Origin: Christensenellaceae bacterium
Lineage (GTDB): Bacteria > Bacillota > Clostridia > Christensenellales > CAG-138
Reading direction: 5' to 3'
NCBI GenBank assembly: GCA_963665515.1
Contig: OY762278.1
Location: 2,862,414 to 2,926,413, forward strand
DNA length: 64,000 nt
In this document: positions 6,321 through 56,591 of the stretch, piece after piece
Layout: each line of letters opens with the position of its first letter
How positions within the stretch are numbered: the first letter of the stretch is position 1
The notes under the pieces: generated by a model
Database searches by the model: none
The model's input: only the letters and a program-made list of their open reading frames with translations
Told to the model about the DNA's origin: nothing
Program-made: the position numbers and the translations under genes

Positions 6321-6512
6321 ATGTGGAATTCCTCCTTCATTTATTAACAGATTCCAAATTGTTTCACGATATAGTATAACACTGGCTATTTCAAGTTTCA
6401 ATATTAAAATGTCTTGTTTTTTCAGTACTAATTATCCTCTTTTGCCACTGTGTTTGCATTTTTAGCAATCGTATGATATAGATAGGATATATTATTTGCG
6501 GAGGTTTAGAGA

Positions 6513-21577: not shown

Positions 21578-21653
21578 TGGTGGAGCATGGGGGATTCGAA
21601 CCCCCGACCTCAACATTGCGAACGTTGCGCGCTACCAACTGTGCTAATGCCCC
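21578..21653 (-). tRNA. tRNA-Ala (anticodon CGC), CCA encoded
   Basis: Minus strand reads GGGGCATTAGCACAGTTGGTAGCGCGCAACGTTCGCAATGTTGAGGTCGGGGGTTCGAATCCCCCATGCTCCACCA. It has a 7-bp acceptor stem with the Ala-identity G3:U70 pair, anticodon loop TTCGCAA, and T-loop GGTTCGAATCC. Confidence 0.9.
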
Positions 21654-23983: not shown

Positions 23984-24065
23984 TCCTTTCCAATTCTGTT
24001 GCCCCTACGTGTTGGGTTTTACTTTGGGTTAATTTCAATGCGTGCTTTCACTGCAAGCACGGTTG

Positions 24066-24995
24066 CTACATCTTTATATTCACAATCTTGCGGACAATCA
24101 AGAATCCAATTGTTTCAAGCACGACCGAAATGATCAGCATGATGCGACCTTCTTGTGTCGTAAAAAACATGTCGATATAGCCAGGGTTAATAAACATCAG
24201 CAGGACAATAATGAAAATCGGCAGCGCTCCGACAATGTATCCGCTGAGCATTCCTGCGGCGGTTAGGGTTTTCACCTCTCCGCGCAATTGAATTCGTTGA
24301 TTGATCGTATCGGATATATTCTCCAGAATAATCGCAAGGTTGCCGCCAATCTGCCGTTGAATAACAACAGCCGAGCACATTAAATCCAAGTCCTGGTTCT
24401 TCGTCCGCTCAACAAGACGATTCAGGCTTTGTTCCAACGGCATTCCGAGTTGCGTCTCGCGATACACGCGCATGAATTCACGTGAAATTGGTTCTTCCAT
24501 CTCCTCTGCCACATTCTTCAACGCTGTTTGAAACGAGAGGCCTGCGCGCAATGCGTTGCAGATAATGTTCATCGCATCGGATAATTGCTTACCCAACATA
24601 CCCAGTCGGCGGTTGCGCTTGATGACCACAAATCCGATCGGTGCGGCAGCACCAACGATTACCAGACCGATAGATAGGCTCATCGGCGCGCCAAGGAACA
24701 AAGCGGAAGCTGGTATAACTGCGCTAGAAATTACCCAAATCGTGATGAATTCTTCAGCGCGAAGCGCGATGCCTGCGACATAAAGTTCATCTGCAATTTT
24801 ATCTAACCTGTGTAGGCGGGCGCGATTGTTTTTTGTTCGGCTTTTTCGAGTTCTCGTGGTTTCCAGGTTTGTATCGAAAAACGACCGCACTCGTTTTTCC
24901 AAAGCTCGTTCATGTTTCGTGTAAAGCATTGCAACGATATAAAACATAAAATATGCCGCACAAGCAAATACGATGATTAAAATCGTTCTGATCAT
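24066..24995 (-). CDS. tadB: Tad pilus inner-membrane platform protein TadB (type II secretion F family)
   Basis: 309 aa, T2SSF-like. Directly downstream of the CpaF ATPase. Confidence 0.8.
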   Translation of the reverse strand: MIRTILIIVFACAAYFMFYIVAMLYTKHERALEKRVRSFFDTNLETTRTRKSRTKNNRARLHRLDKIADELYVAGIALRAEEFITIWVISSAVIPASALFLGAPMSLSIGLVIVGAAAPIGFVVIKRNRRLGMLGKQLSDAMNIICNALRAGLSFQTALKNVAEEMEEPISREFMRVYRETQLGMPLEQSLNRLVERTKNQDLDLMCSAVVIQRQIGGNLAIILENISDTINQRIQLRGEVKTLTAAGMLSGYIVGALPIFIIVLLMFINPGYIDMFFTTQEGRIMLIISVVLETIGFLIVRKIVNIKM

Positions 24996-25049
24996 TCGAA
25001 TCCCCGCCTCCTTTCCTGTCTGTCATATTAAAAGTCCATATTTACTTGG

Positions 25050-26357
25050 TCATACAAACCATTCATCTTTAACACCTGCGCCGCCCGCAGAGAGCTTATC
25101 GCAGCAGTGCGGTTTGATTCCGGTTGGTTTAAAGCGCCCTTGTGTGCGTCCGTCGCCTAGATCGAATTTGAAAATTTCCTGGGTAACGATCACGTCGCCT
25201 TCCATGCCAAGCACTTCGCTGATGCTGGTCACTTTGCGTGTGCCGTCGCGCATACGTGACTGCTGAACAATGATGTCGATTGCAGACGCAATCTGCTGAC
25301 GGATTGCCGGTATCGGCAAGTTCATACCCGCCATGAGCACCATGGTTTCCAGCCGGGACAACATGTCGCGCGTTGAGTTTGCATGTCCCGTTGTCATGGA
25401 TCCGTCATGTCCTGTGTTCATCGCCTGCAACATGTCCAGTGCTTCGCCGCCGCGCACCTCGCCGACGACAATACGATCGGGACGCATACGCAAAGCATTT
25501 CGCACAAGGTCGCGGATCGCAATCTGCCCCGTTCCTTCAAGATTTGCCGGGCGGGACTCCAGAGTTAACACGTGTTGCTGTTGCAGTTGAATTTCGGCAG
25601 CGTCCTCAATTGTAATGATGCGCTCATTATGCGGAATGTAGGCCGAGAGCACATTCAGAAGCGTCGTTTTGCCACTGCCGGTTCCGCCGGAAATAACGAC
25701 GTTCAGTCGTCCTTTTACGCAGGCCTCGAGGAACGAAGCCATTTTAAAAGTCAAGCTGCCGAAACTGATCAGGTTTTCAACGGTCAGTGGGCTCTTTGAA
25801 AATTTACGTATCGTCAGCAGCGGTCCTTTGAGCGAAAGCGGCGGAATTACTGCATTGACACGCGAACCGTCGGCAAGACGTGCGTCCACCATTGGGTTTG
25901 CTTCATCGATGTGACGGCCAAGCGGGGATACGATTCGATCAATGACGTTGAGCAGCTGTTCGTCGTCAAAAAACGTTACGTCGCTCAAAACGAGTTTGCC
26001 CTTACGCTCAATAAACACCTGCTTTGCGCCGTTGACCATGATTTCGCTGATGGAATCGTCCATCAACAGTCGTTCCAGTGGGCCAAGACCGCGAATTGAA
26101 TCATAGATCTCCCCCGCAATTCGCATGCGCTCCGGGCGAGCCATGTTCGCCGCCTGTGTCTCCAATACGGCCTCGATAATCGCGCGCGTATCCGCTTCGT
26201 TCGTAACGCCGCCGTGCTTCTCCTCACGCTTGTTGAGCATTTCGACGGCAGTAAGATGTACACGGTCACGAAGTGCGGAAAGCTCATCGATTTCCGCCGA
26301 GGCCGCCGCAGTGGCTGCCGCCAGTGTTTTTTTGTCAAGCCGTTCCAGCAGTCCCAC
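25050..26357 (-). CDS. cpaF: CpaF/TadA secretion ATPase
   Basis: 435 aa. Walker A GGTGSGKTTLLN, Asp/His boxes (ITIEDAAE, GHDGSMTTGHANS) of the VirB11/CpaF family. Confidence 0.9.
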   Translation of the reverse strand: MGLLERLDKKTLAAATAAASAEIDELSALRDRVHLTAVEMLNKREEKHGGVTNEADTRAIIEAVLETQAANMARPERMRIAGEIYDSIRGLGPLERLLMDDSISEIMVNGAKQVFIERKGKLVLSDVTFFDDEQLLNVIDRIVSPLGRHIDEANPMVDARLADGSRVNAVIPPLSLKGPLLTIRKFSKSPLTVENLISFGSLTFKMASFLEACVKGRLNVVISGGTGSGKTTLLNVLSAYIPHNERIITIEDAAEIQLQQQHVLTLESRPANLEGTGQIAIRDLVRNALRMRPDRIVVGEVRGGEALDMLQAMNTGHDGSMTTGHANSTRDMLSRLETMVLMAGMNLPIPAIRQQIASAIDIIVQQSRMRDGTRKVTSISEVLGMEGDVIVTQEIFKFDLGDGRTQGRFKPTGIKPHCCDKLSAGGAGVKDEWFV

Positions 26358-26360
26358 GCG

Positions 26361-27488
26361 TTATGCCCTCCTCGTTAAAAATTTTGCATACTTTAAAATT
26401 GCACCCGACGCCTTTGATCGCGGCGCACAGGAAATCATCGGAATCCCGCGATTGATTGCGGTGACGGCGGCTTTCGGATCGTTTGGAATCACCAGTGCCG
26501 GTGAACAATCCAAAAGATTCGCAACGTCTTTGATCTTAATGTTGCTCATTCCATCGCGATTGACGACAACTTTAATCTTGTCGCCAAGGTTCAGCGCTTC
26601 CAGTATCTTCATGCTGCGCTTTGCGTCATGAAGCGTAGCAATATCTTCATTCACAACGAAATAGATCGTGTCCGTCATTTCAAAGGCGGCGACCGAGCAA
26701 TCGTTGAGCGTTACGCCCATATCAAGGACGATATAGTCAAATTCCGTGCGAAGCGTTGAAAGTATCGTCTCTATATGCTCCGGCTTGACCAACTCTGCAT
26801 ACTCCGGTGAGCTGCTTGCAAGAAGCACCATAACACCGCTGTAGTGTCGAATTAAGTATGTCTTGAGCGTTGCCAGTTCAAAGTTGTTTTCTTCAACCAT
26901 GTCTGCAAGCGTATCACCCTTTGGTATGTCAAGGAAAACACCTATATCGCCAAACTGGAGGTTCAGGTCGATCAAAGCTACCTTTTTGTTTTGCGCGGCA
27001 AGTGCGCAGGCCATGTTGACCGCAAGCGTTGATTTCCCAACGCCGCCTTTTGCCGAGAAAAACTGAATGATTCGCGAATCATAGGTCGCAATTTTTGCAA
27101 TGCTGCTACGGCGATATTGATCACGGCTTGCGGATGTGATGATGGCGGTCTTGATTTCGTCGACCGGGCTGTTCATGTCGATCACGCGAGCAATACCGCA
27201 TTCCATCGCCTGCATAACGTCTTCCGGCGAAGGTTTCGGCGTCATGAGCAGGATCGTCACATCGCTGCGGCTTGTATACATGCGTTCTGCAAAGTCGAAC
27301 TCGACTTCCGGAATAGCCGTTGTGCATAGCAACAGCACATCAGCAGGCTGTGTACCCGCTTTCTTCAGGCCGTCCTTGTCGGGTTTCAGGGAGCAGACGA
27401 TGCGGAGCGCTTCATCCTGCAACAAGCCGGCCGCTGTTCTTTTGTCATCCGCGGCAAATGCCGCAAGCATGATTCGTACGCTATCCAT
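26361..27488 (-). CDS. cpaE: CpaE/TadZ-like pilus assembly ATPase (receiver-like N-domain plus ParA/MinD ATPase)
   Basis: 375 aa. Deviant Walker A FFSAKGGVGKST. N-terminal CheY-like fold region. Confidence 0.8.
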   Translation of the reverse strand: MDSVRIMLAAFAADDKRTAAGLLQDEALRIVCSLKPDKDGLKKAGTQPADVLLLCTTAIPEVEFDFAERMYTSRSDVTILLMTPKPSPEDVMQAMECGIARVIDMNSPVDEIKTAIITSASRDQYRRSSIAKIATYDSRIIQFFSAKGGVGKSTLAVNMACALAAQNKKVALIDLNLQFGDIGVFLDIPKGDTLADMVEENNFELATLKTYLIRHYSGVMVLLASSSPEYAELVKPEHIETILSTLRTEFDYIVLDMGVTLNDCSVAAFEMTDTIYFVVNEDIATLHDAKRSMKILEALNLGDKIKVVVNRDGMSNIKIKDVANLLDCSPALVIPNDPKAAVTAINRGIPMISCAPRSKASGAILKYAKFLTRRA

Positions 27489-27500
27489 CTTTCGTCCCCT

Positions 27501-28277
27501 TTAGCCCGCTTCTTCCAACAAGGAATCATTGATGATCGGATCTTCTGTATTCGCTTCGTGATCACCGGACGCGCGAAGAACAATCGTAACAATACCGCTC
27601 TTTGCGCCCTGAATGACGCGCATTGCATCCTCCGGCGTTAACAAAAGGGTTATGCTGGAGTAGATTTCCGCTGTTGTTCCGTCTGCGCTGGCTGAATCCT
27701 TTAGTGACGTTCCAACAGCTGCAACGCATACATTCTGTGCAGCCACAACAGTCGTTCCTTGTTCTGTTTCCTCTTCTTCCGTTGTTCCATCGGTCGTTTC
27801 CGTAGTGGTAGTTTCTTCAGGATCATAAGTCGTTGTTGTGTACGCTAGCACGTCCACATAGTCACCACGCTGTACAAAGCCGGCGACACCGGACACCTCA
27901 TCCACTGATATTGTGACCGCACGCATGCCTTCCGGAATAATGTAACTCATGCCGCTGTCATCCTGACCTTGCTGCTTTAGCTTTGAAGGCAGAATCTCTT
28001 CACCAGCAACGATAAGCCCTTCGGTAACAAACCCGACTGCTTCGCTTACGGAATGCGCGGCCAAGGGATGCGAAGTGCCTTCCGGAACTTGAGTTAGGGT
28101 CAGCATGTCCGCCGTAATGACAGAATATGCGGGAATATCGACGGCCGCCACCAGTACGTCTTCATACACAACCTCGACCACCGTATCCTGTTCAAGATTG
28201 TCGAGATAAAAGTAGAGCAGTGCACCCGCGACAATTGCCATAATCAGTGCAAAAAGGATAACCTTTTTCATCCGCAT
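27501..28277 (-). CDS. cpaB: Flp pilus assembly protein CpaB/RcpC (SAF domain) with a Thr/Glu-rich insertion
   Basis: 258 aa. N-terminal TM, then VLVAAVDIPAYSVITADML (SAF-like). Low-complexity segment TTTTYDPEETTTTETTDGTTEEEETEQGTT. Confidence 0.75.
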   Translation of the reverse strand: MRMKKVILFALIMAIVAGALLYFYLDNLEQDTVVEVVYEDVLVAAVDIPAYSVITADMLTLTQVPEGTSHPLAAHSVSEAVGFVTEGLIVAGEEILPSKLKQQGQDDSGMSYIIPEGMRAVTISVDEVSGVAGFVQRGDYVDVLAYTTTTYDPEETTTTETTDGTTEEEETEQGTTVVAAQNVCVAAVGTSLKDSASADGTTAEIYSSITLLLTPEDAMRVIQGAKSGIVTIVLRASGDHEANTEDPIINDSLLEEAG

Positions 28278-28386
28278 TCCCTCCGTTCCATCGTTTCGGC
28301 AAACGTTTTATCCACTTGCCGTAATAAATTCCAACTGTTTATAATCAATGTCGGGCGGCTTTTTTCAGCCGCCCGTATTGTTTCGA

Positions 28387-29406
28387 TCACTTACTCAAAA
28401 CCAGGCTGTATACGCCGAAGCTTGGCGCAGTTCCAGTCAAGTCTCCATCCGCCGCGCCAATGTTCACCATGTTTACATAACTTCCGATGACGCAACCTTC
28501 ATCCACGTAGGTTGAATAGTCTTCCAAGACAAACGCCGCAAAGCCAACCACTTTTACGTATTTATGTTGGGCGTCAGTGTATGTAATAACCGGTATTTTC
28601 ATTACACGCGGACAGTCAGCCTCATAGTGCGCAATCGTGCATCCACCCATCGAAGGATAATGCGTGCATGAATTGTACCGGGTGGCAATTCCGGAAACGG
28701 TCGGACCGGTCATATTACCGTCTTCAACCGGGAGCACAGTCCCGATCGACAGTTTGCCTTCATATCCATTTGCCAGCCAGCTTGTGTAGTCGTTGGCGCC
28801 GCCGCCTTTCACGCCGTCGAGGTCAATCGCGCCAAATGCGCCGTCGACAACTTCCTCTTCGTTTGATCCATATTTCAAGATAGCATGCTGCGTTGAACCG
28901 CTTGCAATCATTTCTGAAAGTGTGCTTTCCTCAATGGAAAGCGGCACAAGGTCTGACAGCGCGGTGCACGGTACAACACGTGCCTGCGCCGCTCTGCTGA
29001 ACGAAATTTCCTCTATACCAAATACCTTTGCAAAATATGTTTCGCTTGTCGCCGCCATCGTAACATCGATGGAATGATATTTCCCGCCGCTGAGTTCACC
29101 AAGCACAACGGATGCGTTTTCCGGATCGTCCACACCGTTTTTGCCAAGGTACTCGCGGGCTATCGCCGTCGCTTCCACAACCGCCGTTGCATCCGTGCTT
29201 ATGATTGGAAGCTTTAACCCCGCCGCCATAACAGCCGCGTCAACCGCCGTTTGCGTTTGTGCCGTCTTTACATAAGCCGTGCCGAGGTCGGTCACCGTTG
29301 CCGTCATGCCGAGCAGCGCGGTCATGGCCAGCGCAACGATAATGATCGAATCGCCGCGTTCTTCTTTTTTTAATCGCCGGAGCAAATTCCGGAAAAAAAC
29401 TTTCAT
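28387..29406 (-). CDS. TadG-like/TadE-G-like pseudopilin-type assembly protein
   Basis: Start reassigned to MKVFFRNLL (ATG 29404-29406) behind a GGAGGG RBS. N-terminal ERGDSIIIVALAMTALLGM hydrophobic segment is typical of TadE/G-like proteins. Confidence 0.7.
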   Translation of the reverse strand: MKVFFRNLLRRLKKEERGDSIIIVALAMTALLGMTATVTDLGTAYVKTAQTQTAVDAAVMAAGLKLPIISTDATAVVEATAIAREYLGKNGVDDPENASVVLGELSGGKYHSIDVTMAATSETYFAKVFGIEEISFSRAAQARVVPCTALSDLVPLSIEESTLSEMIASGSTQHAILKYGSNEEEVVDGAFGAIDLDGVKGGGANDYTSWLANGYEGKLSIGTVLPVEDGNMTGPTVSGIATRYNSCTHYPSMGGCTIAHYEADCPRVMKIPVITYTDAQHKYVKVVGFAAFVLEDYSTYVDEGCVIGSYVNMVNIGAADGDLTGTAPSFGVYSLVLSK

Positions 29407-29485
29407 TGCAGCGTCCCTCCTTATGGACTTGCGGCAGTTCGCACTACCCCGGGAACACAAAAATCTAAATCATCTCGATGAGTCG

Positions 29486-29902
29486 CTAACTCATCTTCAT
29501 CGTACACTCCGCCTGCAGATGGAACACGCCGTCCGAAGTTAAAAACGCAGTCAGTGGCGTTATTGTCGGCAGGTCGTAGGTCGTAACAACCGTGATATCT
29601 CCCGATCGGAAGTTTGTGGCGTCTGAATACGTAACGGTGATGCCAAGTTCATTTGTCATATAGTCCGGCTTCATGCCGTTGATGCGCGCCGTCACGTCCG
29701 CCGTGTTAGTCGCGGCGCTGGTCGCTACAATTCCTGCGCGGACGCCTTCGCGCGTGATATTGTCCAGTACCAGTCGTGTTGAAGCCAGCCAGCCAAGCTC
29801 GATCATACCGCAGATTAAAAGCAAAAGCAGAGGGAGCGTAAGCGCTAGCTCGACCACCGACTGTCCGCTTTCGCGGCGCTTCTTCAATAATCTTTTTTGC
29901 AT
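29486..29902 (-). CDS. tadE: TadE-family pseudopilin
   Basis: Start reassigned to MQKRLLKKRRESGQSVVELALTLPLLLL (ATG 29900-29902, GGAGGGAG RBS). Has a G/xxxxE prepilin-like processing motif. Confidence 0.8.
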   Translation of the reverse strand: MQKRLLKKRRESGQSVVELALTLPLLLLLICGMIELGWLASTRLVLDNITREGVRAGIVATSAATNTADVTARINGMKPDYMTNELGITVTYSDATNFRSGDITVVTTYDLPTITPLTAFLTSDGVFHLQAECTMKMS

Positions 29903-29933
29903 CTTCCGTCGCTCCCTCCAAAGTTTGTTTTGT

Positions 29934-30095
29934 TCACTGTCCAAGCGTCAGCTTGTCGCCAACGCCGGAAAATAGTCCGGCCGCTTTGTTTCCGACCGCA
30001 GACAGGCCAATGACGACAACAGTCGCTACCAAAGCGATAATCAAGCCGTATTCCACCATGCCCTGTCCGTTTTCATTCATCAACAAGTGCATCAT
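29934..30095 (-). CDS. flp: Flp-family type IVb pilin, divergent copy (flp-1)
   Basis: 53 aa from MMHLLMNENGQGMVEYGLIIALVATVVVIGL. Contains the Flp G/xxxxEY motif plus a hydrophobic helix. Confidence 0.8.
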   Translation of the reverse strand: MMHLLMNENGQGMVEYGLIIALVATVVVIGLSAVGNKAAGLFSGVGDKLTLGQ

Positions 30096-30126
30096 ATCAG
30101 CAAAACCGCCTTTGCACTTACTCATG

Positions 30127-30297
30127 TTAGCCCGCGGTCGTGCCAAGAGTCAGTTTGTCGCTAATGCCGCTGAAGAGCGTGTTCGCCTTGCCGCCCAACG
30201 CAGTCAGGCCAACGATAACGACGACCGCCACCAGCGCGATGATAAGGCCGTATTCCACCATGCCCTGTCCGCTTTCGTTCTTCCAGAAGTTTTTCAT
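30127..30297 (-). CDS. flp: Flp-family pilin (flp-2)
   Basis: 56 aa: MKNFWKNESGQGMVEYGLIIALVAVVVIVGLTALGGKANTLFSGISDKLTLGTTAG. GGAGG RBS. Confidence 0.85.
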   Translation of the reverse strand: MKNFWKNESGQGMVEYGLIIALVAVVVIVGLTALGGKANTLFSGISDKLTLGTTAG

Positions 30298-30336
30298 TTT
30301 TATAGCCTCCATAAAGCTTAAATACACTTTTGTTCT

Positions 30337-30364
30337 CTGCATGGGATTTCATGCAGTTTTTTTT
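30337..30364. other. Stem-loop between flp-3 and flp-2 (CTGCATG/CATGCAG) with its T8 run on the + strand
   Basis: 7-bp stem at 30337-30356 and T8 at 30357-30364. In the minus-strand mRNA the hairpin is preceded by A8 and has no U tract after it. Confidence 0.6.
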
Positions 30365-30378
30365 GACGGCTTCGTCTA

Positions 30379-30540
30379 TCAGGAACCAAGTGTCAGCTTG
30401 TCGCTGATGCCACTGAAGAGCGTGTTCGCCTTGCCACCCAACGCCGTGAGACCGACGATAACGACGACCGCCACCAATGCGATGATCAGGCCATATTCCA
30501 CCATGCCCTGTCCGCTTTCGTTCTTCCAGAAGTTTTTCAT
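30379..30540 (-). CDS. flp: Flp-family pilin (flp-3), below the ORF-track size cut-off
   Basis: My translation gives MKNFWKNESGQGMVEYGLIIALVAVVVIVGLTALGGKANTLFSGISDKLTLGS (53 aa). GGAGG RBS at 30547-30551. Confidence 0.85.
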   Translation of the reverse strand: MKNFWKNESGQGMVEYGLIIALVAVVVIVGLTALGGKANTLFSGISDKLTLGS

Positions 30541-30578
30541 GATTTTAGCCTCCTAAAGCTTATCAATCAATTTGTTTT

Positions 30579-30620
30579 CCTGCGGATCGCGAACCGTTCG
30601 AGATCCGCAGGTTTTCTTTT
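30579..30620. other. Long stem-loop between flp-4 and flp-3 (CCTGCGGATC/GATCCGCAGG) with its T-rich run on the + strand
   Basis: 10-bp perfect stem (30579-30588 / 30602-30611), extendable through CGAAC/GTTCG. TTTTCTTTT follows on the + strand only. Confidence 0.6.
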
Positions 30621-30633
30621 AAGCGTTTTGTCG

Positions 30634-30807
30634 TCAGCCAGCAGTCGTGCCAAGTGTCAACTTGTCGCTGATGCCGCTGAAGAGCGTATTTGCCTTGCCG
30701 CCCAACGCAGTGAGGCCGACGATAACGACGACCGCTACCAGCGCGATGATCAGACCATATTCCACCATGCCCTGTCCACTTTCGTTTTTCCAGAATTTCT
30801 TCATCAT
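30634..30807 (-). CDS. flp: Flp-family pilin (flp-4), below the ORF-track size cut-off
   Basis: My translation gives MMKKFWKNESGQGMVEYGLIIALVAVVVIVGLTALGGKANTLFSGISDKLTLGTTAG (57 aa). AGGAGG RBS at 30814-30819. Confidence 0.85.
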   Translation of the reverse strand: MMKKFWKNESGQGMVEYGLIIALVAVVVIVGLTALGGKANTLFSGISDKLTLGTTAG

Positions 30808-30972
30808 TCCATCCTCCTATTGAATTATTTTTTGGTTCGGCTTTCGCCTTTGGTTCAGGACGCTCATCGTCCCATGGGAGACTTTTATTAGGTTATGATG
30901 TTCTTTTGCGGACAAACCATCCATGTCCGCACTTCCAAACAGTTGTTGCAAAAAGCCAATCGCACGTTACCC

Positions 30973-31596
30973 TTAAATCGCCGACACAATAACAAGCGCG
31001 GCCGCTAAAAAAGGTCCCATCGGTATCATGGTCTTAAGCCGTTCCGCCACCGGTAAGCGCTGCTCAATGAGCAGATAAAGCAGGACAAACCCGCCCATGC
31101 AAACAATGGCGTACAAACTGCCGGAAAACCCGAGTGCAAATCCCATCGCCGCAGCAAGCTTTACATCACCGGCGCCAATTTTTTGTTTCCAAATACAAGG
31201 TACCAGGAAGGTGATAAAACAAGCGATAAATCCCAGCAGCGACGACCAGATTTGAAACGATATGACACCCGTGAGTCCGAACACAGCGGAAAGGATAATG
31301 ACCGCCATGACCAGCTCGTTCGGAATCACACGGTGTTTCGCGTCGATGTACGAAACGCTTGCGGCCACAAGGAGCACAAGCATCAAATACAACGCCCGCA
31401 AAGAAACGCCTGCACGCCATGCAATCAACCCGCCCGCTGCCGCCATGCATCCGAGCAGTACCCATTGCTGTTTGCGTTCCATCGCCGGATCCAGTCCGCG
31501 TTGCCTGAGCAGAAAGGCGCAGAGGAATTGCGCCGGAAAAAACAGCGCGGAACCGGCGGCCATGCCGGCGAGAATCAGTAGGAACGTGTTCAGCAT
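30973..31596 (-). CDS. tadV: Prepilin peptidase, A24 family (TadV/CpaA type, no methyltransferase domain)
   Basis: 207 aa, polytopic. Two catalytic-Asp contexts (YIDAKHRVIPNE and GAGDVKLAAAMG). GGAAGGAGGG RBS. Confidence 0.85.
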   Translation of the reverse strand: MLNTFLLILAGMAAGSALFFPAQFLCAFLLRQRGLDPAMERKQQWVLLGCMAAAGGLIAWRAGVSLRALYLMLVLLVAASVSYIDAKHRVIPNELVMAVIILSAVFGLTGVISFQIWSSLLGFIACFITFLVPCIWKQKIGAGDVKLAAAMGFALGFSGSLYAIVCMGGFVLLYLLIEQRLPVAERLKTMIPMGPFLAAALVIVSAI

Positions 31597-31809: not shown

Positions 31810-31900
31810 CATTCGGCAACTGGCTGCCATGGACGCAATAAACGTCTTTAGGCCCTATAGCTTTGCGACTACCGCTTTCACGGGGTGTGCTCTTAACATG
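31810..31900 (-). promoter_or_regulatory. c-di-GMP-I (GEMM-I) riboswitch aptamer 1, leader of the Tad pilus operon
   Basis: Minus strand reads GCACACCCCGUGAAAGCGGUAGUCGCAAAGCUAUAGGGCCUAAAGACGUUUAUUGCGUCCAUGGCAGCCAGUUGCCGAA. It has a GNRA-capped P1b hairpin, ACGCAAAGC-like core, GGCCUAA and a GCC.GUUGCCGAA 3' end, as in known GEMM-I RNAs such as Vc2. Confidence 0.8.
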
Positions 31901-31982
31901 GGAAGAACCATTTCTTTGATATTCAGTTGTAACTTCTTTATTCTTTTCGAAGATAAAGAAGCAAAAAGAAATTTTCCTGTAC

Positions 31983-32441
31983 CTACTCCGGAATTTCCGG
32001 GATTTCGATCTCTGGGAGGAAACTGCGGAGCCAAAACACGAAGTCCTGTGCCTTTTGATGCAGCTCCAGCGCAAGCTCTTTGTTTACAAACCGACTCTTG
32101 ATGTTCTTGTAAGAAAACGGATAATCGGACATATAGTAGAACATGATGTCCATAAGATAGTCTTCGCATTCATTTCTGCGCGAATTAAATCTTTCCAGAT
32201 CCGCTTCCTTCTTAAACGGTTCGCTATCCACAATCTTTGAAAACAGAAAGTTTACGTTGTGTGTCTTCGGCGGTTCGGCTTTGATAAAGTACACATACAT
32301 CGCCTTTAGCTGACGTTCCGTCGCCTGCTGGCAAAGAAACGCAACATATACCCACCGTTTACCCGTAATCAGCGCATCTATTGTTCCCAGATCATAATCC
32401 GAGAGCATGAGCCAATAACCGCATTTGTCCATTTTATTCAT
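31983..32441 (-). CDS. HEPN-domain protein
   Basis: 152 aa. CGYWL..S..DL..A..L........AF.CQQA.E..LKA and KTHN...L blocks are typical of MNT-associated HEPN (PF05168-like). No R-x4-6-H motif is visible. Confidence 0.7.
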   Translation of the reverse strand: MNKMDKCGYWLMLSDYDLGTIDALITGKRWVYVAFLCQQATERQLKAMYVYFIKAEPPKTHNVNFLFSKIVDSEPFKKEADLERFNSRRNECEDYLMDIMFYYMSDYPFSYKNIKSRFVNKELALELHQKAQDFVFWLRSFLPEIEIPEIPE

Positions 32442-32448
32442 TCGGATT

Positions 32449-33366
32449 TTACTCCTCTTTGCGAAGCATGCCGCTCGTTACAAGTTCTTTCAGCACGCTT
32501 GTAACCTTAGTGTCAAACTGATGATTGAGAGAATCGAGCTCTTCGGCGGATTCTTCAAACGACTTAACCTTATTATAGCCTCTGTCGCTTGTCATTGCGT
32601 CAAACGCATCCGCCACGGCGACGATTTTCGCCGCGAGGCTGATATCAGCGGACATAAGTCCACGCGGATAACCGCTTCCATCGAGTCGTTCATGATGGTT
32701 CATGGCGATTTCGGCAACGTGTTCACCAAATTCAGATCGCAGCATTCTGCCGCTGTCAACCGGATGCCGGAAGATATACCGGAGTTCCGAAGGCTCCAGC
32801 TTGCCTGCCTTTTGCAGGATTTCAACCGGAACGAAGCACTTGCCAACGTCATGGAACAGCGCCGCAACAGCGAGATCATCTCGCGAAACATGCTCAATCT
32901 CCGTATCCATCGAGTCAAAAACACTCAAGGAGTACTTCAATACGGCCGCACTGTGCCGATAGGTATAGTTATCTTTTTCGTTGATTCGTACTAATAGTGC
33001 GATCAGGCTTTCTTCAAACTGAGAGACAGATTCGAACGCCGGGCAATTCGTTACATAGACGATTTTGGTATCTCCCTGCATTTTTACAGGAATGTCCCGC
33101 GTCAGCCCGGAAACCGTAAACGATTCACCCGAACCAAGCGCCACAACGTCGTCGTCCAACGCAAGTTCCACTCCACCCTCATGGATAAAGAAAAACTCAA
33201 TTGCGCAAGGATCGGCAGCAGGAGTCAGCCATACAACGGACTCACCGCCGATTGTTTGCGACATAATCTCAAGGTCTCCCTGTTTGGCAAGGAGAGCCGT
33301 AATCGCTTCATTTCCGCCCTGTTCGTTTTGATTAACACCTCGGCGGTTAAATACGATTCCTTCCAT
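32449..33366 (-). CDS. HD-GYP domain cyclic-dinucleotide phosphodiesterase with an N-terminal beta-rich (cupin-like?) domain
   Basis: 305 aa. HSAAV...ALFHDVGK (HD), HHERLDGSGYPRGL (GYP), ADAFDAMTSDR. Confidence 0.85.
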   Translation of the reverse strand: MEGIVFNRRGVNQNEQGGNEAITALLAKQGDLEIMSQTIGGESVVWLTPAADPCAIEFFFIHEGGVELALDDDVVALGSGESFTVSGLTRDIPVKMQGDTKIVYVTNCPAFESVSQFEESLIALLVRINEKDNYTYRHSAAVLKYSLSVFDSMDTEIEHVSRDDLAVAALFHDVGKCFVPVEILQKAGKLEPSELRYIFRHPVDSGRMLRSEFGEHVAEIAMNHHERLDGSGYPRGLMSADISLAAKIVAVADAFDAMTSDRGYNKVKSFEESAEELDSLNHQFDTKVTSVLKELVTSGMLRKEE

Positions 33367-33405
33367 TTACACACCCATCCACACGCGTTTCACGGCGAAT
33401 GGATC

Positions 33406-33747
33406 TCATGAAACGCGCAGTTCAATCCCGTAGGTTACCACTTCTTCTATGATACCACAAGGTTGAAACAATTCATAGGCATGAAACGGCTGAACCTGTA
33501 TGTCCACCTGCGTATTGGCACAGATCCGCGCCAACATATGGTACTGCCCTAGCAGGCAGTCATCTTCCGTATCAAAGAACACAGCAAGGTCAATATCGCT
33601 TTCCGGTTCTGCAATACCCTTTGCATACGAGCCGAACAGCACGATTTTATGAACATCAGGCAAAGCGGATATTTTCGTGCAACATTCATTCATAAATGCC
33701 GCATGCTGGTTGAGCACGTGCGAAAAGTCTCTGCAAACCCGTATCAT
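33406..33747 (-). CDS. Minimal nucleotidyltransferase (MNT, Pol-beta superfamily)
   Basis: 113 aa with LFGSYAKGIAEPESDIDLAVF (GS-x9-11-DxD motif). Confidence 0.8.
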   Translation of the reverse strand: MIRVCRDFSHVLNQHAAFMNECCTKISALPDVHKIVLFGSYAKGIAEPESDIDLAVFFDTEDDCLLGQYHMLARICANTQVDIQVQPFHAYELFQPCGIIEEVVTYGIELRVS

Positions 33748-33791
33748 TCGCGCACCATCCTTCCGGCCGTGGTTGTCCTTCTTATCGAAGT

Positions 33792-34169
33792 TTACAGCGG
33801 AATTACGCGGAGCGGATCGATCAGAACATACTGTCCGTCAATGTAGTACTCGGTATAATCGCACGCAATCGTGCAGCCGATTGATTCAGCATAAGCGGTC
33901 ACTTCCGCAACGATTGCGTCAATCTTTACAAGCATCTCGGCAACGTCGTCCTCGGGAGTATGCTGTGCTTTAGCAACAGCTTTCTCGATTTCTTTGTTTG
34001 CCTTATCTACCATGTTTTCAAGTTTTTTAAGTTGGATCTCGGAGCATTTATCGCTTCCGTTGGCAACCAGAACCAATTCCGGACCGTTGCCTTTTGCGCT
34101 TGCAATGCCCGGCAGCAACAGAACTACCAGCATAACGCTGATCAGGATACTTAAAATTTTTCTGCTCAT
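33792..34169 (-). CDS. Small secreted protein, unknown family (first gene after riboswitch 2)
   Basis: Start set to MSRKILSILISVMLVVLLLPGIASA (ATG 34167-34169, GGAGGAAC RBS). Signal peptide with an ASA-K cleavage site. The mature part is helical-looking with three Cys. Confidence 0.65.
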   Translation of the reverse strand: MSRKILSILISVMLVVLLLPGIASAKGNGPELVLVANGSDKCSEIQLKKLENMVDKANKEIEKAVAKAQHTPEDDVAEMLVKIDAIVAEVTAYAESIGCTIACDYTEYYIDGQYVLIDPLRVIPL

Positions 34170-34236
34170 TCTTAGTTCCTCCGCATTTTTTTGTGGTTTA
34201 TGGTTTGGGATCAGGAGCAACCACGCTTAGGCAATG

Positions 34237-34272
34237 AAAAAAGCAGCTTGCCTTTTGAATTGCCAAGCTGCC
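34237..34272 (-). terminator. Intrinsic terminator forming the expression platform of riboswitch 2
   Basis: 8-bp stem GCAGCUUG / CAAGCUGC followed by U6 on the minus strand, between the aptamer and the first gene. Confidence 0.75.
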
Positions 34273-34317
34273 AAATAGCGTATGCCGCGTTACGTAAACG
34301 TTGCGGTTGGACACTCG

Positions 34318-34412
34318 ATCGGCAACTGGCTACCATAAACGCTTTCTGATTCAGTGTGCGTTCTTAGGCCCTTTAGTTTTGCGTCGCCTGCTTTCACAGG
34401 TTTTGCCTTTTC
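34318..34412 (-). promoter_or_regulatory. c-di-GMP-I (GEMM-I) riboswitch aptamer 2
   Basis: Minus strand reads AAAAGGCAAAACCUGUGAAAGCAGGCGACGCAAAACUAAAGGGCCUAAGAACGCACACUGAAUCAGAAAGCGUUUAUGGUAGCCAGUUGCCGA. All hallmark GEMM-I blocks are present (GGCAAA, GNRA-capped hairpin, GACGCAAA, GGCCUAAG, GCCAGUUGCCGA). Confidence 0.85.
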
Positions 34413-34439
34413 GTGGGAGAGACTCCTAAACCTAGGCAT

Positions 34440-34468
34440 AATTTATCATACCCATTTGGGTATGTCAA
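34440..34468 (-). promoter_or_regulatory. Promoter of the riboswitch-2 operon (TTGACA-17-TAAATT) with an internal palindrome
   Basis: -35 TTGACA at 34463-34468 and -10 TAAATT at 34440-34445 (minus strand). The spacer contains TACCCA-nn-TGGGTA (34449-34462). Confidence 0.65.
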
Positions 34469-34777: not shown

Positions 34778-37252
34778 ATGAACTTGCATAACAATTCGAA
34801 TTCTTCCACTTTTCAGACGGATCAATCATCCGATTGTAATAAGGAAATAAGCAGTATTTTTGAAAAGGCAGACGTTCTTGTTTCGCAAATGACGCTGCGC
34901 GAGAAAACAAGCCTTTTAAGCGGAGCGGACGACTGGAACACGAAACCGCTCGAACGCCTCGATCTCGGCATGACAATGGTTGCCGACGGACCGCATGGTC
35001 TACGCAAAGAAGTGCTGCCCGTCCCGTCGACCGGCAAGCAAACTGTTCCTGCGACATGCTTTCCAACCGCCGCGGCTTCCGCCTGTTCGTTTGACCGCGA
35101 TCTTCTTAAAAAACTCGGCACCGCGATTGCAGAAGAATGCCGTGCAGAAGACGTTTCCGTCATTCTCGGCCCCGGTTTGAACTGCAAACGCAGCCCGCTC
35201 TGTGGACGGAACTTCGAATACTTCAGCGAAGACCCCGTCGTATCCGGAGAGCTTGCAAGCGCATACGTAGACGGCGTGCAAAGTCAGGGCGTCGGCGCAT
35301 GCGTGAAACACTTTGCGCTCAATAATCAGGAGCTACGCCGGTTAATTGTCGATTCCGTCGCGGACGACCGTGCCATTTTCGAACTTTACCTGTCTGCGTT
35401 TGAACGGGTCGTTAAAAAATCGCATCCGTGGACGGTGATGTGTTCATACAATCGCGTGAAAGGTGAACATGCAAGCGAAAATCACTGGCTTCTTACCGAT
35501 GTTTTGCGAAGCCGCTGGGGCTTTCAAGGGCTCGTTATGTCCGACTGGGGCGCCGTGAACGATCGCGTTAAGGGTGTTGCTGCCGGACTCGACGTAGAGA
35601 TGCCGTATGTCGATGATTATCGCGACCAGCTGATTGAGAAGGCCGTTGCCGACGGCAACTTAAGCGAAAATGACGTCGATCGCTGCGCAGAGCGCGTATG
35701 TGCATTGACCTTGCGTGCCAAGGATCGCAAGCCGCTTGAACATAAATTTGAAGAACACCATGCATTTGCGCGTGATATCGCTGCACAATCGATGGTGCTA
35801 TTAAAAAACGAAGAACTGTTGTTGCCGTTAAAAAAAGACAAATCTGTTGCCGTCATCGGCACATTTGCAAAAACGCCACGTTATCAAGGCGCAGGCAGTT
35901 CCAAAGTCGTTCCCATAAAGGTCGATTGTCCGTTTGATGAACTTGTAAATCTTGGTGTCTCTGCAGAGTATGCACCCGGCTATGACCCGGAACGTGATGA
36001 ACCGGACGAAGCTTTACTCTCCGAAGCCATCCGGTTAGCGACAAAATGCGACGTTGCCGTGCTCTTTGTCGGCTTGCCGGACCGTTACGAATCCGAAGGG
36101 TTTGACCGCGAAACGCTCAACATGCCGAAGAGTCACATCGAGCTGGTTCGTCGCGTGCAGCAGGCCAATCCAAATGTTGTTGCCGTGCTTATGGGCGGAT
36201 CGGTAATCGATATGGGTTGGGAATCCAGTGCAAAATCAATCCTGCTGGCCTATCTTGGCGGCGAAGCGGTCGGTGGCGCAATTGCGGACGTCTTGACGGG
36301 CAACGTCAACCCCGGCGGAAAGCTGGCGGAGAGCTGGCCTATGGAGCTTGAGGATAATCCGAGCTACGCATACTTCCCCGGCTATCCGCACACGGTCGAA
36401 TACCGCGAAAGCATCTTCGTTGGCTATCGTTACTACGATACGGCAAAGCGTCCCGTGCGCTATCCGTTTGGTTACGGTCTTTCATACACATCGTTTTCTT
36501 ATAAAAATTTAACGATCAACAGCGACGCCCTTAACACCGGCGAGACGCTTTCGATTTCCTGTGACGTTACAAATACCGGCAAGCGTGCCGGAAGCGAAGT
36601 TGTGCAACTTTATGTTTCGCATAATTCGGATGTGATGTTTTGCGCAGAACAGGAATTGAAAGGGTTTGAGAAAGTTGTTCTTCAGCCCGGCGAAACAGCA
36701 CCCGTTTGCTTCACGTTGACACGGCGCGATCTTAGTTACTATAATACGGAAGCGTCCGACTGGCGCGTTGAAGGCGGAGAATACGAAATACGCATCTCAT
36801 CGTCCAGTCGAAATGTACGTTTATGCGAAACAATCGCGGCGGAACCCGATGATGATCAGAGCGTGCCGGATTTTCGGGAAAGCGCGCCGTGTTATTATGA
36901 CCTTTCCGATGGAATTAACGTGCCGGACGATGCGTTTGTCGCGCTGCTTGGTTCTCCACTTCCAAAACGCGAGCGCGAACCCGGCGATCCTTTTACACAA
37001 AATTCCACGCTCCGCGAAGCGCAACATACGCTGATTGCACGCATTCTCACCGGCATTGGTAAAAAGGAAATTGCGCGCAGGAAGGCAGACGGCGATATCG
37101 GCGGCGACGAAGACGAAATGCTGCTTTACGAGTCACCGCTGCGCATGCTTGCGTCAGGAGACACCGGCTTCAGTCCAAAACATGTGGAGGGGCTTGTTAT
37201 GATGCTCAATCGGAAATTCTTTGCCGGATTAAAGCATATGTTCAAGCGTTGA
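34778..37252 (+). CDS. Glycoside hydrolase family 3 (beta-glucosidase/BglX-like)
   Basis: 824 aa. GH3 N-domain blocks (GPGLNCKRSPLCGRNFEYFSEDP, VMSDWGA nucleophile region), C-terminal alpha/beta sandwich and FnIII-like domain (QLYV..., GFEKV.L.PGE). Confidence 0.85.
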   Translation: MNLHNNSNSSTFQTDQSSDCNKEISSIFEKADVLVSQMTLREKTSLLSGADDWNTKPLERLDLGMTMVADGPHGLRKEVLPVPSTGKQTVPATCFPTAAASACSFDRDLLKKLGTAIAEECRAEDVSVILGPGLNCKRSPLCGRNFEYFSEDPVVSGELASAYVDGVQSQGVGACVKHFALNNQELRRLIVDSVADDRAIFELYLSAFERVVKKSHPWTVMCSYNRVKGEHASENHWLLTDVLRSRWGFQGLVMSDWGAVNDRVKGVAAGLDVEMPYVDDYRDQLIEKAVADGNLSENDVDRCAERVCALTLRAKDRKPLEHKFEEHHAFARDIAAQSMVLLKNEELLLPLKKDKSVAVIGTFAKTPRYQGAGSSKVVPIKVDCPFDELVNLGVSAEYAPGYDPERDEPDEALLSEAIRLATKCDVAVLFVGLPDRYESEGFDRETLNMPKSHIELVRRVQQANPNVVAVLMGGSVIDMGWESSAKSILLAYLGGEAVGGAIADVLTGNVNPGGKLAESWPMELEDNPSYAYFPGYPHTVEYRESIFVGYRYYDTAKRPVRYPFGYGLSYTSFSYKNLTINSDALNTGETLSISCDVTNTGKRAGSEVVQLYVSHNSDVMFCAEQELKGFEKVVLQPGETAPVCFTLTRRDLSYYNTEASDWRVEGGEYEIRISSSSRNVRLCETIAAEPDDDQSVPDFRESAPCYYDLSDGINVPDDAFVALLGSPLPKREREPGDPFTQNSTLREAQHTLIARILTGIGKKEIARRKADGDIGGDEDEMLLYESPLRMLASGDTGFSPKHVEGLVMMLNRKFFAGLKHMFKR

Positions 37253-37331
37253 ACGCCGGCATAACAAAGGTCAATCATCATAAAGCGAAATAAAGTCCGT
37301 TATTTTTACCAACCGGAGGTCACGTTACGTC

Positions 37332-38396
37332 ATGTTGTCCGTCTTATCCTGTTTCGCTCTTTCCAGCGAGCCTATTTCCGTTGCGCCTTACGGCAGCGGC
37401 CATATCAACGGTACGCAATTGGTCACTTGCCGCGACGGCTCACGCTATGTGTTGCAACAGATCAATACGTCCGTATTTCACGAACCCGTATCGCTGATGC
37501 ACAATATCGAGCTGGTCACCGCGCATCTTCGCAAAAAGAATGATGATCCGCGGGCAGTTCTGACACTTGTACCCACGCTTGAAGGAAAAAGCTATACTGT
37601 TCGAAACGGCGAGTATTGGCGCATTTATGAACTGGTGCAGGACAGCGTTTGTTTTGAGCAAGCGGACGAGGCATTATTTTATGAGTGCGCCGTTGCGTTC
37701 AGCAGGTTTCAAAACCAACTTTCCGATTTTGACGCAAAGCAGCTTGTGGAGACGATCCCGCACTTCCATGATACGCCAGCTCGCTTTGCCGCCTTTCGCA
37801 ATGCAGTCAAAGCGGACGCCGCAAATCGCGTAAAGGATGTTCGACCGGAGATTGATTTTGTGCTTTCATACGAATCGTTTGCGCACACGCTTTTTGATCT
37901 ACAAGCATCCGGTGATCTTCCATTGCGTGTGACGCATAACGACACCAAGATTAACAACGTTCTTTTTGACGCACAGACAAGAAAAGCGCTTTGTGTCATC
38001 GATCTCGATACGGTCATGCCAGGTCTCAGCGTACACGATTTTGGAGACGCCGTTCGTTCCGGCGCGTCCACCGCCAGCGAAGACGAACGTAACCTTGACC
38101 TTGTGCATTTCGATATGAAACTTTACGAAGCGTATGTGCGCGGTTATCTTTCCACCTGCGGAGAAAGTTTAACAAAAGTCGAAATTGAAATGCTGCCGGT
38201 TGGCGCTATGATGATGGCACTTGAATTGGGCTCTCGTTTTTTAGCCGACCACATCGCGGGCGACGTATACTTCCATATCTCTCGTGAAGGGCACAACCTC
38301 GACCGCGCGCGCACACAGTTTCAATTGCTAAAGGAAATGGATAACCAGCGCGACAAAATGCAATCCCTTGTTTCATTTGATAGTCAAGTAATATGA
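37332..38396 (+). CDS. nahK: N-acetylhexosamine 1-kinase (NahK/LnpB-like, APH superfamily)
   Basis: 354 aa. PYGSGHINGT..V......YVLQQINTSVF, HFHDTPARF, RVTHNDTKINNVLFD, IDLDTVMPG, FLADHIAGDVYF. These match Bifidobacterium NahK block-by-block as I recall it. Confidence 0.75.
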   Translation: MLSVLSCFALSSEPISVAPYGSGHINGTQLVTCRDGSRYVLQQINTSVFHEPVSLMHNIELVTAHLRKKNDDPRAVLTLVPTLEGKSYTVRNGEYWRIYELVQDSVCFEQADEALFYECAVAFSRFQNQLSDFDAKQLVETIPHFHDTPARFAAFRNAVKADAANRVKDVRPEIDFVLSYESFAHTLFDLQASGDLPLRVTHNDTKINNVLFDAQTRKALCVIDLDTVMPGLSVHDFGDAVRSGASTASEDERNLDLVHFDMKLYEAYVRGYLSTCGESLTKVEIEMLPVGAMMMALELGSRFLADHIAGDVYFHISREGHNLDRARTQFQLLKEMDNQRDKMQSLVSFDSQVI

Positions 38397-56416: not shown

Positions 56417-56502
56417 TGTCCATGTTCTCCTTTTTTTTGTTTCAGGAAAACGCGCCTTTCGTCCGGAGTGTATGCAAAAAGAAACTTGACATATTGATAC
56501 TC

Positions 56503-56591
56503 GTCCCCCTTTGCAAAATAACGGCAGGCACGCACGTTTCCGTCCGTACCCAATGGCCGACGCAACCGTGAGCCTGCGTCGGCTCGGAGAC
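56503..56591 (-). promoter_or_regulatory. Molybdenum/tungsten cofactor (Moco/Tuco) riboswitch candidate in the tupA leader
   Basis: Minus strand reads GUCUCCGAGCCGACGCAGGCUCACGGUUGCGUCGGCCAUUGGGUACGGACGGAAACGUGCGUGCCUGCCGUUAUUUUGCAAAGGGGGAC. It has the conserved CUCCGAGCC, a 9-bp P2 (GCCGACGCA/UGCGUCGGC), GGAAAC, a terminal AAAGG(G/A)G and a closing P1 (GUCUCC/GGGGAC). Confidence 0.65.

Follow-up and report, generated by a model that had tools for sequence, protein, structure and literature searches.

A c-di-GMP riboswitch-led operon combining a cupin-HD-GYP protein with a putatively domesticated nucleotidyltransferase/HEPN pair in uncultured Clostridia

The subject of this analysis is a 64,000-nucleotide (nt) stretch of a Christensenellaceae bacterium genome (assembly GCA_963665515.1, contig OY762278.1), referred to here as the window, and within it a minus-strand cassette of four genes that lies behind a class I riboswitch for cyclic di-GMP (c-di-GMP). 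The genes encode a small secreted protein, a minimal nucleotidyltransferase (MNT), a protein that joins a cupin-like domain to an HD-GYP phosphodiesterase domain, and a HEPN-fold protein. Our preferred explanation, to which we give a probability of about 0.6, is that this is a riboswitch-gated operon switched OFF by c-di-GMP, in which the phosphodiesterase takes part in positive feedback and the HEPN/MNT pair has been domesticated, and that it has been inherited vertically in uncultured Clostridia. In its overall working, the cassette comes closest to a phosphodiesterase operon under riboswitch control, with a domesticated nucleotidyltransferase and a domesticated HEPN protein as accessories. 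The transcription unit consists of the following features, all on the minus strand (aa, amino acids).

34440-34468: promoter-like site TTGACA-17-TAAATT with an extended TG before the -10 element; consensus scan, 10 of 12 positions (sigma-70-like, a consensus match only)
34318-34417: c-di-GMP-I (GEMM-I) aptamer 1; Rfam RF01051, 69.8 bits
34262-34330: antiterminator, in which the 3' strand of stem P1 (34319-34330) pairs with the terminator 5' arm (34262-34274); predicted fold
34237-34272: leader intrinsic terminator, GGCAGCUUGGC...GCCAAGCUGC plus U6; sequence, and fold with the P1 strand blocked
33792-34169: gene 1, secreted protein, 125 aa; open reading frame with a signal-peptide-like N-terminus
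33406-33747: gene 2, MNT, 113 aa; Pfam Polbeta/NTP_transf_2
32449-33366: gene 3, cupin-like N-terminal domain and HD-GYP phosphodiesterase domain, 305 aa; Pfam HD_5
31983-32441: gene 4, HEPN-fold protein, 152 aa; Pfam PF05168

The gaps between the four genes are 44, 39 and 7 nt, and the GAGGAG ribosome-binding site of the HEPN gene lies within the final HD-GYP codons. The promoter, aptamer, terminator, four open reading frames, gaps and HEPN ribosome-binding site were all found where the preliminary description had placed them, and Pfam assigned its three domain families as well (MNT by Polbeta/NTP_transf_2, HD-GYP by HD_5/HD, HEPN by PF05168), with gene 1 unassigned. The interpretation offered there held in part, and it is refined below in the sign of the feedback, in the separability of the parts and in counting the secreted protein, as the fourth, among the conserved members.

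Two scans contributed related loci, which are numbered with an L. The species-representative genome collection was scanned with an HD-GYP profile, and the result was dominated by generic HD-GYP proteins (pattern ALFHDVGK), with 12 of 80 loci being orthologous. A metagenome scan with a HEPN profile was far more effective and added 43 further loci. In addition, a covariance model of our own was built from 16 cassette aptamers. Over the genomes and metagenomes together, the HD-GYP gene lies directly upstream of the HEPN gene in 48 of the 51 loci that reach upstream.

The riboswitch leader and its predicted direction

Aptamer 1 matches RF01051 over the full model length (positions 1-87; E=1.3e-11), and its score of 69.8 bits lies well above the Rfam gathering score of 35, which upholds its earlier identification by eye. 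Its alignment contains the ligand-specificity nucleotides of the c-di-GMP type in GGCAAA and AGCC, and G12 and C13 are invariant in the 16 cassette aptamers. In the numbering of the Vc2 crystal structures, the G of GGCAAA would correspond to G20 and the C of AGC to C92, the GEMM-Ib riboswitches that sense cyclic GMP-AMP (cGAMP) having A20. The match of the HD-GYP protein to V-cGAP3, described below, had prompted cGAMP as a candidate ligand, and this candidate was set aside on the c-di-GMP-type G and C positions of the aptamer.

When the 3' strand of P1 was left free, the minimum-free-energy fold of the leader was the antiterminator, 34319-34330 with 34262-34274 (-31.0 kcal/mol). When this strand was blocked, the antiterminator was gone and the leader terminator folded. 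The two predicted structures are mutually exclusive, which is the arrangement of a riboswitch expression platform. A consensus scan had overlooked the leader terminator because its loop exceeds 8 nt. On the basis of these folds, leader 1 is predicted to be built as an OFF switch, in which high c-di-GMP shuts off phosphodiesterase expression. In the absence of ligand, the P1 3' strand would pair with the terminator 5' arm and RNA polymerase would read through; with c-di-GMP bound, P1 would form and the terminator would form with it. Constrained folding gave the same OFF logic in the window and in L001-L005, and an automated fold test gave it in approximately 26 of 34 leaders. The leaders of L009, L085 and L087 have other sequences and the same switch architecture, and the terminator is kept in orthologues as GGCAGC..GCUGC/GUC-U5-6. 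The class I c-di-GMP riboswitches of C. difficile are transcriptional OFF switches (PMC11477304).

If c-di-GMP represses the enzyme that degrades it, the resulting feedback would be positive (double-negative) and would favour two stable states, not homeostasis. The preliminary description had proposed a feedback loop from the dependence of a c-di-GMP-degrading enzyme on c-di-GMP. The part that stands is that a c-di-GMP aptamer leads the HD-GYP operon, and the predicted OFF platform would make the sign positive. At low c-di-GMP, the secreted protein, an active-looking MNT, the cupin-HD-GYP protein and a coupled HEPN protein without the canonical ribonuclease (RNase) arginine would be produced, and the circuit may act as a double-negative latch that stabilises both the low and the high c-di-GMP state.

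The four proteins and the altered HEPN motif

The HEPN protein matches PF05168 with 38.7 bits against a cut-off of 22. Its AlphaFold2 model has a predicted local distance difference test score (pLDDT) of 90.7 and shows the four-helix up-down HEPN fold, with Foldseek probabilities of 1.0 to 1ufb, 1wol, 2hsb, 4nqf and sacsin 3o10; these best folds in the PDB are classical MNT-associated HEPN proteins and the sacsin HEPN domain. Sequence and profile searches of the PDB gave chance matches only, so that HEPN structures were found by fold comparison alone, and no NCBIfam or PADLOC model matched. The subfamily is narrow: it makes up 176 clusters in a word-indexed database, and only 6 of 1.84 billion representatives reach E<1e-30.

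Where this subfamily has YYMSDYPFSYKN, its remote relatives have YYI..RYP.YK, so that the conserved arginine is replaced by Asp106 (DYP for RYP). This is the site at which Anantharaman et al. place the Rx4-6H motif (PMC3710099). In the window protein the motif site is MFYYMSDYPFSYKN, with D106 in place of the arginine and no histidine within 4-6 residues, and the RNase-toxin motif is therefore absent. The protein has only two histidines, H61 (KTHNV) and H128 (LELHQ), and neither stands in an Rx4-6H context; His61-Asn62 is invariant family-wide. The loop D106-Y-P-F-S-Y111 is also invariant, including in genomes that lack MNT and in loci that lack HD-GYP, and it has low pLDDT. The HEPN protein is the most conserved of the four, with 64-81% identity where the HD-GYP protein has 49-75%.

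In two loci, L083 and L088, MNT has decayed to a C-terminal relic (a pseudogene) without the catalytic GS...DxD part, and the HEPN gene beside it is intact. The ratio of nonsynonymous to synonymous substitution rates (dN/dS) of HEPN between the two is 0.074, indicating purifying selection, a value to be read as approximate since dS between these MNT-less genomes is 1.2, near saturation. A toxin that needs MNT would not be so maintained. The earlier suspicion that this may not be a classical RNase toxin is thus strengthened by the change of the arginine to Asp106, by the missing Rx4-6H motif and by retention under purifying selection without MNT.

The MNT protein scores 44 and 40 bits with the Pfam Polbeta/NTP_transf_2 families. 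G39-S40, D51-x-D53 and D82 are invariant in 12 orthologues, so that the hG[GS]x9-13DhD motif and the third carboxylate are both present; as all catalytic carboxylates are kept, MNT is probably active. The closest solved relative is MntA 5yep (E=0.003), and the NCBIfam MntA_antitoxin equivalog model is matched with 43.6 bits, below its cut-off of 60. By analogy with MntA/HepT (PMC7641770) and with a published domestication scenario (PMC3710099), our leading guess for the MNT target is nucleotidylylation of HEPN.

These properties bear on the possibility that the cassette is a genuine type VII HepT/MntA system with an inserted HD-GYP gene, in which HEPN would be a growth-arresting RNase, MNT would AMPylate it, and c-di-GMP would only time expression. 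Such a system would account for the intact GS...DxD...D motif of MNT and for its nearest solved relatives being MntA antitoxins, for the position of MNT ahead of HEPN as in toxin-antitoxin dyads (PMC3710099), for the existence of a riboswitch-MNT-HEPN form without HD-GYP, and for the invariance of His61. It is at odds with the replacement of the canonical arginine by aspartate with no histidine at x4-6, with the slow evolution and synteny of HEPN (it is the slowest-evolving cassette gene, unlike mobile toxin-antitoxin modules), and with the two genomes that keep an intact HEPN under purifying selection beside an MNT pseudogene; the MNT score is below the MntA cut-off, and HEPN matches none of the NCBIfam or PADLOC models. 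All three type VII features tested, namely motif, gene adjacency and antitoxin dependence, gave a negative outcome; MNT and HEPN are adjacent only in L118/L119 and L123, and elsewhere HD-GYP stands between them. The toxin-antitoxin reading was rejected because HEPN has lost the arginine, is highly conserved and syntenic, and stays intact next to MNT pseudogenes, and we consider it very unlikely.

The cupin-HD-GYP protein matches Pfam HD_5 with 118.6 bits (3e-34), together with HD, and there is a weak Cupin_2 match at residues 55-85. H138, H172-D173, H201, H224-H225-E226, G232-Y233-P234 and D253 are invariant in 24 orthologues; the protein thus has both the metal ligands and the HHE..DG.GYP signature of HD-GYP domains, and it aligns to 5z7c and 4mcw. 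The nearest solved structures, V-cGAP3 (5z7c), PmGH (4mcw) and PA4781 (4r8z), are cyclic-dinucleotide phosphodiesterases. The orthologous family is tight, with more than 120 clusters at at least 63% identity over the full length. The protein most likely hydrolyses c-di-GMP.

The junction between the HD-GYP and HEPN genes has a median of -4 nt (ATGA type) across 48 loci, with an overlap in 34 of the 48. This arrangement suggests that HEPN is probably translationally coupled to HD-GYP. Because such stop/start overlaps are typical of coupled subunits, the junction is our main reason for proposing that the two proteins may be physical partners.

Translational coupling would also suit a cycle of the kind performed by GlnD, in which MNT would nucleotidylylate a Tyr or Ser of the HEPN DYPFSY loop and HD-GYP would remove the nucleotide, instead of or besides hydrolysing c-di-GMP. 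GlnD itself joins a nucleotidyltransferase domain with an HD domain. The low pLDDT of the D106-Y111 loop suggests that it may be flexible, and its position matches that of the AMPylated Tyr in HepT proteins (PMC3710099). Against such a cycle, the full HHE..DG.GYP signature, which is typical of cyclic-dinucleotide phosphodiesterases, is invariant. We know of no HD-GYP protein that acts on protein-nucleoside monophosphate adducts. Furthermore, the loop is invariant in the MNT-less genomes and the HD-GYP-less loci, and must therefore be more than a substrate for one or the other enzyme. We consider this cycle distinctly unlikely.

If MNT, HEPN and a nuclease-like HD domain together formed an anti-phage defence or conflict system, this would explain the match of MNT to the PADLOC candidate PDC-S09 (E=5e-10) and the weak Cas3-HD matches of the HD domain. 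The HD domain is, however, a bona fide HD-GYP domain, HEPN and the secreted protein match no PADLOC defence model so that no multi-component PADLOC system is recovered, the locus shows synteny with housekeeping genes and lies outside any defence island, and c-di-GMP riboswitches and Tad pilus genes consistently accompany it. A defence function is accordingly extremely improbable.

The N-terminus of gene 1, MSRKILSILISVMLVVLLLPGIASA, reads as a Sec signal peptide, and it is followed by a helical hairpin and a C-terminal four-strand beta meander. The AlphaFold2 model is of moderate confidence (pLDDT 69.7), and Foldseek returned no credible fold match for it in the PDB. No Pfam, NCBIfam or PADLOC family matched the protein, nor is a family assigned to any of its 58 homologues, and the C-terminal motif C.Y..YYIDGQ.V.IDPL is invariant. 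In four loci a secreted protein and a cupin-HD-GYP protein are encoded as a pair without MNT, HEPN or an above-threshold riboswitch.

L007: 2771-4168
L008: 6455-7894
L011: 6539-7840
L012: 6502-7855

The hosts of these pairs extend beyond the phylum of the window's host, L011 being a Mycoplasmatota genome and L012 an Acetothermia metagenome-assembled genome (MAG), with L012 judged by eye. The pair is older and more widespread than the four-gene cassette, and the secreted protein looks like an uncharacterised partner of the cupin-HD-GYP type. Upstream of the secreted-protein gene of L007, at 2537-2623, there is a c-di-GMP-I-like element below threshold (17.5 bits against 35 with Rfam, 22.5 bits with our own model), which may be a degenerate or variant aptamer.

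Conservation, reduced forms and the Tad/Flp neighbourhood

The order MNT, HD-GYP, HEPN is found in seven genome loci (L001-L006 and L009) with HD-GYP identities of 38-96%, the nearest genome being a Christensenellaceae MAG at 96%. All seven have a c-di-GMP-I aptamer upstream (65.7-80.2 bits, Rfam), and five of them also keep the secreted protein, which is missing from L002 and L006. Three more distant HEPN homologues in unrelated neighbourhoods have the same four genes and the aptamer. By Rfam, each of 12 genome loci has an aptamer ahead of the cassette, and our own covariance model places one in L088 and in all 25 metagenome loci with room upstream, which brings the total to approximately 38 of the 39 loci with enough upstream sequence. 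The sole exception is L109, in which a 410-aa HD protein with an extra N-terminal HD-like region replacing the cupin precedes HEPN (3266-4965). This locus has no secreted protein, MNT or aptamer, its HEPN is 99% identical to that of L085, and it looks like a rearranged variant.

Several cassettes are reduced. The secreted protein is absent from L002, L006, L092 and L116, and an intact MNT from L083 and L088. A minimal form consisting of the riboswitch, MNT and HEPN, without HD-GYP or the secreted protein, is found in L118/L119 and L123, where the MNT/HEPN pair alone stays under riboswitch control.

L118: 1258-2371, minimal aptamer-MNT-HEPN form
L123: 327-1279, minimal aptamer-MNT-HEPN form

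A neighbour-joining tree of HEPN shows a deep split between L009, L122 and L124-L130 on one side and the rest on the other. Full cassettes occur in both groups, and the reduced forms branch from within lineages that have the full cassette; they are therefore read as secondary losses and the four-gene, riboswitch-led cassette as ancestral for the HEPN subfamily. The idea that HD-GYP had been wedged into an ancestral MNT-HEPN pair of this subfamily was rejected, because the loci with MNT and HEPN only are nested and look like secondary deletions. A one-off insertion, which would have undone the case for the triad put forward in the preliminary description, is excluded by the conservation across the deep split, HD-GYP orthologues being flanked by MNT and HEPN repeatedly.

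Beside the cassette, and divergent from it, lie the following genes.

34778-38396, plus strand: GH3 beta-glucosidase-like and APH-like kinase genes

Relatives, L081-L084 and L088 among them, share the GH3 and APH genes beside the cassette, and this synteny supports vertical inheritance of the locus.

The reduced forms raise the possibility that the four genes are independent members of a low-c-di-GMP regulon that are merely co-transcribed, with no physical or enzymatic coupling of MNT, HD-GYP and HEPN. The secreted protein, MNT and HD-GYP have each been lost separately, and pairs of the secreted protein and HD-GYP stand alone in other phyla, as would be expected of independent members. Such independence does not sit well with a HEPN subfamily that is essentially confined to the cassette and nearly always found beside HD-GYP, with the conserved start/stop overlap with HD-GYP, or with a gene order that is fixed across the deep split of the HEPN tree. 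We regard it as rather unlikely. The earlier proposal of a three-component module fares in a similarly mixed way: the triad is conserved, but its parts are separable (MNT pseudogenes, a lineage without HD-GYP, the secreted protein with HD-GYP alone), which weakens the case for obligate coupling.

Under the domestication model that we prefer, the HEPN/MNT pair would be a former type VII toxin-antitoxin pair. HEPN would most likely serve the phosphodiesterase as a non-toxic partner or as a regulatory subunit, or else be an effector of the low-c-di-GMP state that binds nucleotides or RNA, and MNT, which is dispensable, would most likely tune HEPN by nucleotidylylation. A more specific version is a second-messenger module in which HEPN binds the cupin-HD-GYP protein stoichiometrically and gates or relays its state, MNT nucleotidylylates HEPN or the phosphodiesterase to reset it, and the OFF riboswitch forms a bistable latch linked to the Tad riboswitch. 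We hold this version to be unlikely, though compatible with the evidence. The anatomy of the cassette, its conservation, its motif states and the selection on it are observed, while the OFF direction, the substrate, a physical complex of HD-GYP with HEPN and the target of MNT are inferred.

Several points weigh against the model. The OFF assignment is a prediction from thermodynamic folding, and 8 of the 34 leaders were ambiguous to the script. The best solved relative of the HD-GYP protein is specific for 3'3'-cGAMP, so that its substrate is not certain. The invariant His61-Asn62 has been suggested to be able to supply catalysis (PMC3710099), and residual RNase activity is therefore possible; the evidence for selection on HEPN includes the approximate dN/dS value given above. 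The loss of MNT in L083 and L088, and of HD-GYP and the secreted protein in L118/L119 and L123, means that the parts can work separately, which weakens an obligate-complex model. Lastly, the model assigns no role to the secreted protein.

Downstream of the cassette lies a second riboswitch-led unit with the following features on the minus strand.

31812-31901: c-di-GMP-I aptamer 2, Tad/Flp leader; Rfam RF01051, 63.8 bits
31672-31705: leader-2 terminator hairpin, 15-bp stem plus U-run; terminator scan and fold
23048-31596: Tad/Flp pilus locus; Pfam, every match above cut-off

Aptamer 2, which the preliminary description had overlooked, sits 82 nt downstream of the HEPN stop codon. There is no convincing terminator between the two, so read-through from the cassette into the aptamer-2 unit is possible. 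The Tad/Flp genes encode an A24 prepilin peptidase, four Flp pilins, TadE, a TadG-like protein, RcpC/CpaB, a TadZ-like protein, the CpaF/TadA ATPase, TadB and TadC. The four tandem Flp pilin paralogues (29934-30807, minus strand) are 53-71 aa long with a near-identical core, NESGQGMVEYGLIIALVAVVVIVGLTALGGKA, and related loci have two to four copies. In leader 2, constrained folding gave the 15-bp terminator every time, and the segment just 3' of aptamer 2, beside P1, covaries with the terminator 5' arm across loci and is a candidate antiterminator; we lean towards an OFF direction for this switch as well.

A second aptamer directly follows HEPN in 15 loci, and in 11 of the 15 (the window and 10 others, including the deep-branch loci L124, L127 and L131) it leads a Tad/Flp operon. 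In L125 (5004-5093) and L126 (2580-2669) the second aptamer is followed by a 46-aa open reading frame and not by Tad genes, and after that, as judged by eye, by a thiamine-pyrophosphokinase-like gene and a sporulation-type sigma factor gene. Extra c-di-GMP-I aptamers were seen in L087 at 3114-3196 (minus strand) and 6507-6591 (plus strand), and the third aptamer of this locus precedes the gene for a 1331-aa Cna_B/SpaA adhesin. Others lie in L085 (6504-6589), before the gene for a 361-aa protein without a Pfam family, and in L117 (2099-2187, minus strand), divergent and upstream of the cassette. The cassette is situated within a riboswitch-rich regulon of surface structures. Elsewhere in the window there are a molybdenum/tungsten cofactor riboswitch (RF01055, 52.9 bits, 56490-56601, minus strand) and a tRNA gene (63 bits, 21581-21653, minus strand).

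Relation to known systems and implications

In the literature we found no paper that links HEPN to HD-GYP, c-di-GMP or a riboswitch in the manner of this cassette, and none that describes an MNT-HD-GYP-HEPN triad behind a c-di-GMP aptamer, in agreement with the preliminary description, which knew of no such arrangement. The GEMM-associated families listed in 2007 already include HD-GYP-domain genes and cpaA, the Tad prepilin peptidase gene (PMC1950547, Table 2), but that list is without MNT, HEPN or a composite cassette. New here are the placement of MNT and HEPN around HD-GYP, the Arg-to-Asp HEPN subfamily that is confined to this setting, the secreted partner with its conservation, and the wiring as a predicted positive feedback.

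The leader resembles the class I riboswitches of C. difficile, such as Cd1 upstream of flgB (PMC11477304), in its GEMM-I aptamer with a terminator, its predicted OFF direction and its Clostridia host. In contrast to Cd1, the operon described here encodes a putative c-di-GMP-degrading enzyme with MNT and HEPN, not flagella or adhesins. These C. difficile riboswitches usually act on processes regulated by c-di-GMP and not on genes of c-di-GMP metabolism (review, PMC11477304).

With type VII HepT/MntA systems (Shewanella SO_3166/3165, Aphanizomenon HEPN/MNT; PMC7641770) the cassette shares an MNT with GS...DxD upstream of a small HEPN, and the two probably have common ancestry. Unlike HepT, the cassette HEPN belongs to a PF05168-type group and not to DUF86, and lacks Rx4-6H through the Arg-to-Asp change; a 305-aa HD-GYP gene lies between MNT and HEPN, HEPN persists without MNT, and the cassette is riboswitch-led and vertically inherited. 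Domesticated regulators that combine a nucleotidyltransferase with HEPN, such as GlnE/GlnD and kanamycin nucleotidyltransferase, have been proposed (PMC3710099). These are similar in that a Pol-beta-type enzyme has an inactive HEPN as its partner for substrate binding or regulation, and GlnD has an HD domain as well. They differ in that the cassette parts are separate polypeptides and its HD domain belongs with the HD-GYP phosphodiesterases for cyclic dinucleotides. The HD...H...HHE..DG.GYP core of the cassette protein aligns throughout with PmGH (4mcw), PA4781 (4r8z) and V-cGAP3 (5z7c); in contrast to these, it has a cupin-like barrel as N-terminal sensor in the place of a REC or GAF-type domain, and it is paired with a small secreted protein and, in the cassette clade, also with HEPN.

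HEPN/MNT pairs are usually toxin-antitoxin or defence systems, and if our explanation is correct, this would be the first such pair that we could find to have been recruited into c-di-GMP signalling. It would also be a testable instance of the scenario of domesticated toxin-antitoxin systems put forward in 2013 (PMC3710099). The Arg-to-Asp DYPFSY subfamily of HEPN, and the secreted family that travels with cupin-HD-GYP proteins across phyla, would provide new handles on HD-GYP regulation. Clostridia lean heavily on riboswitches as c-di-GMP receptors, and a riboswitch-driven positive feedback on a phosphodiesterase would give these bacteria a simple means, based on RNA, of switching bistably between lifestyles. 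A riboswitch-controlled Tad locus repeatedly lies next to the cassette, and this points to surface attachment as the physiological output.

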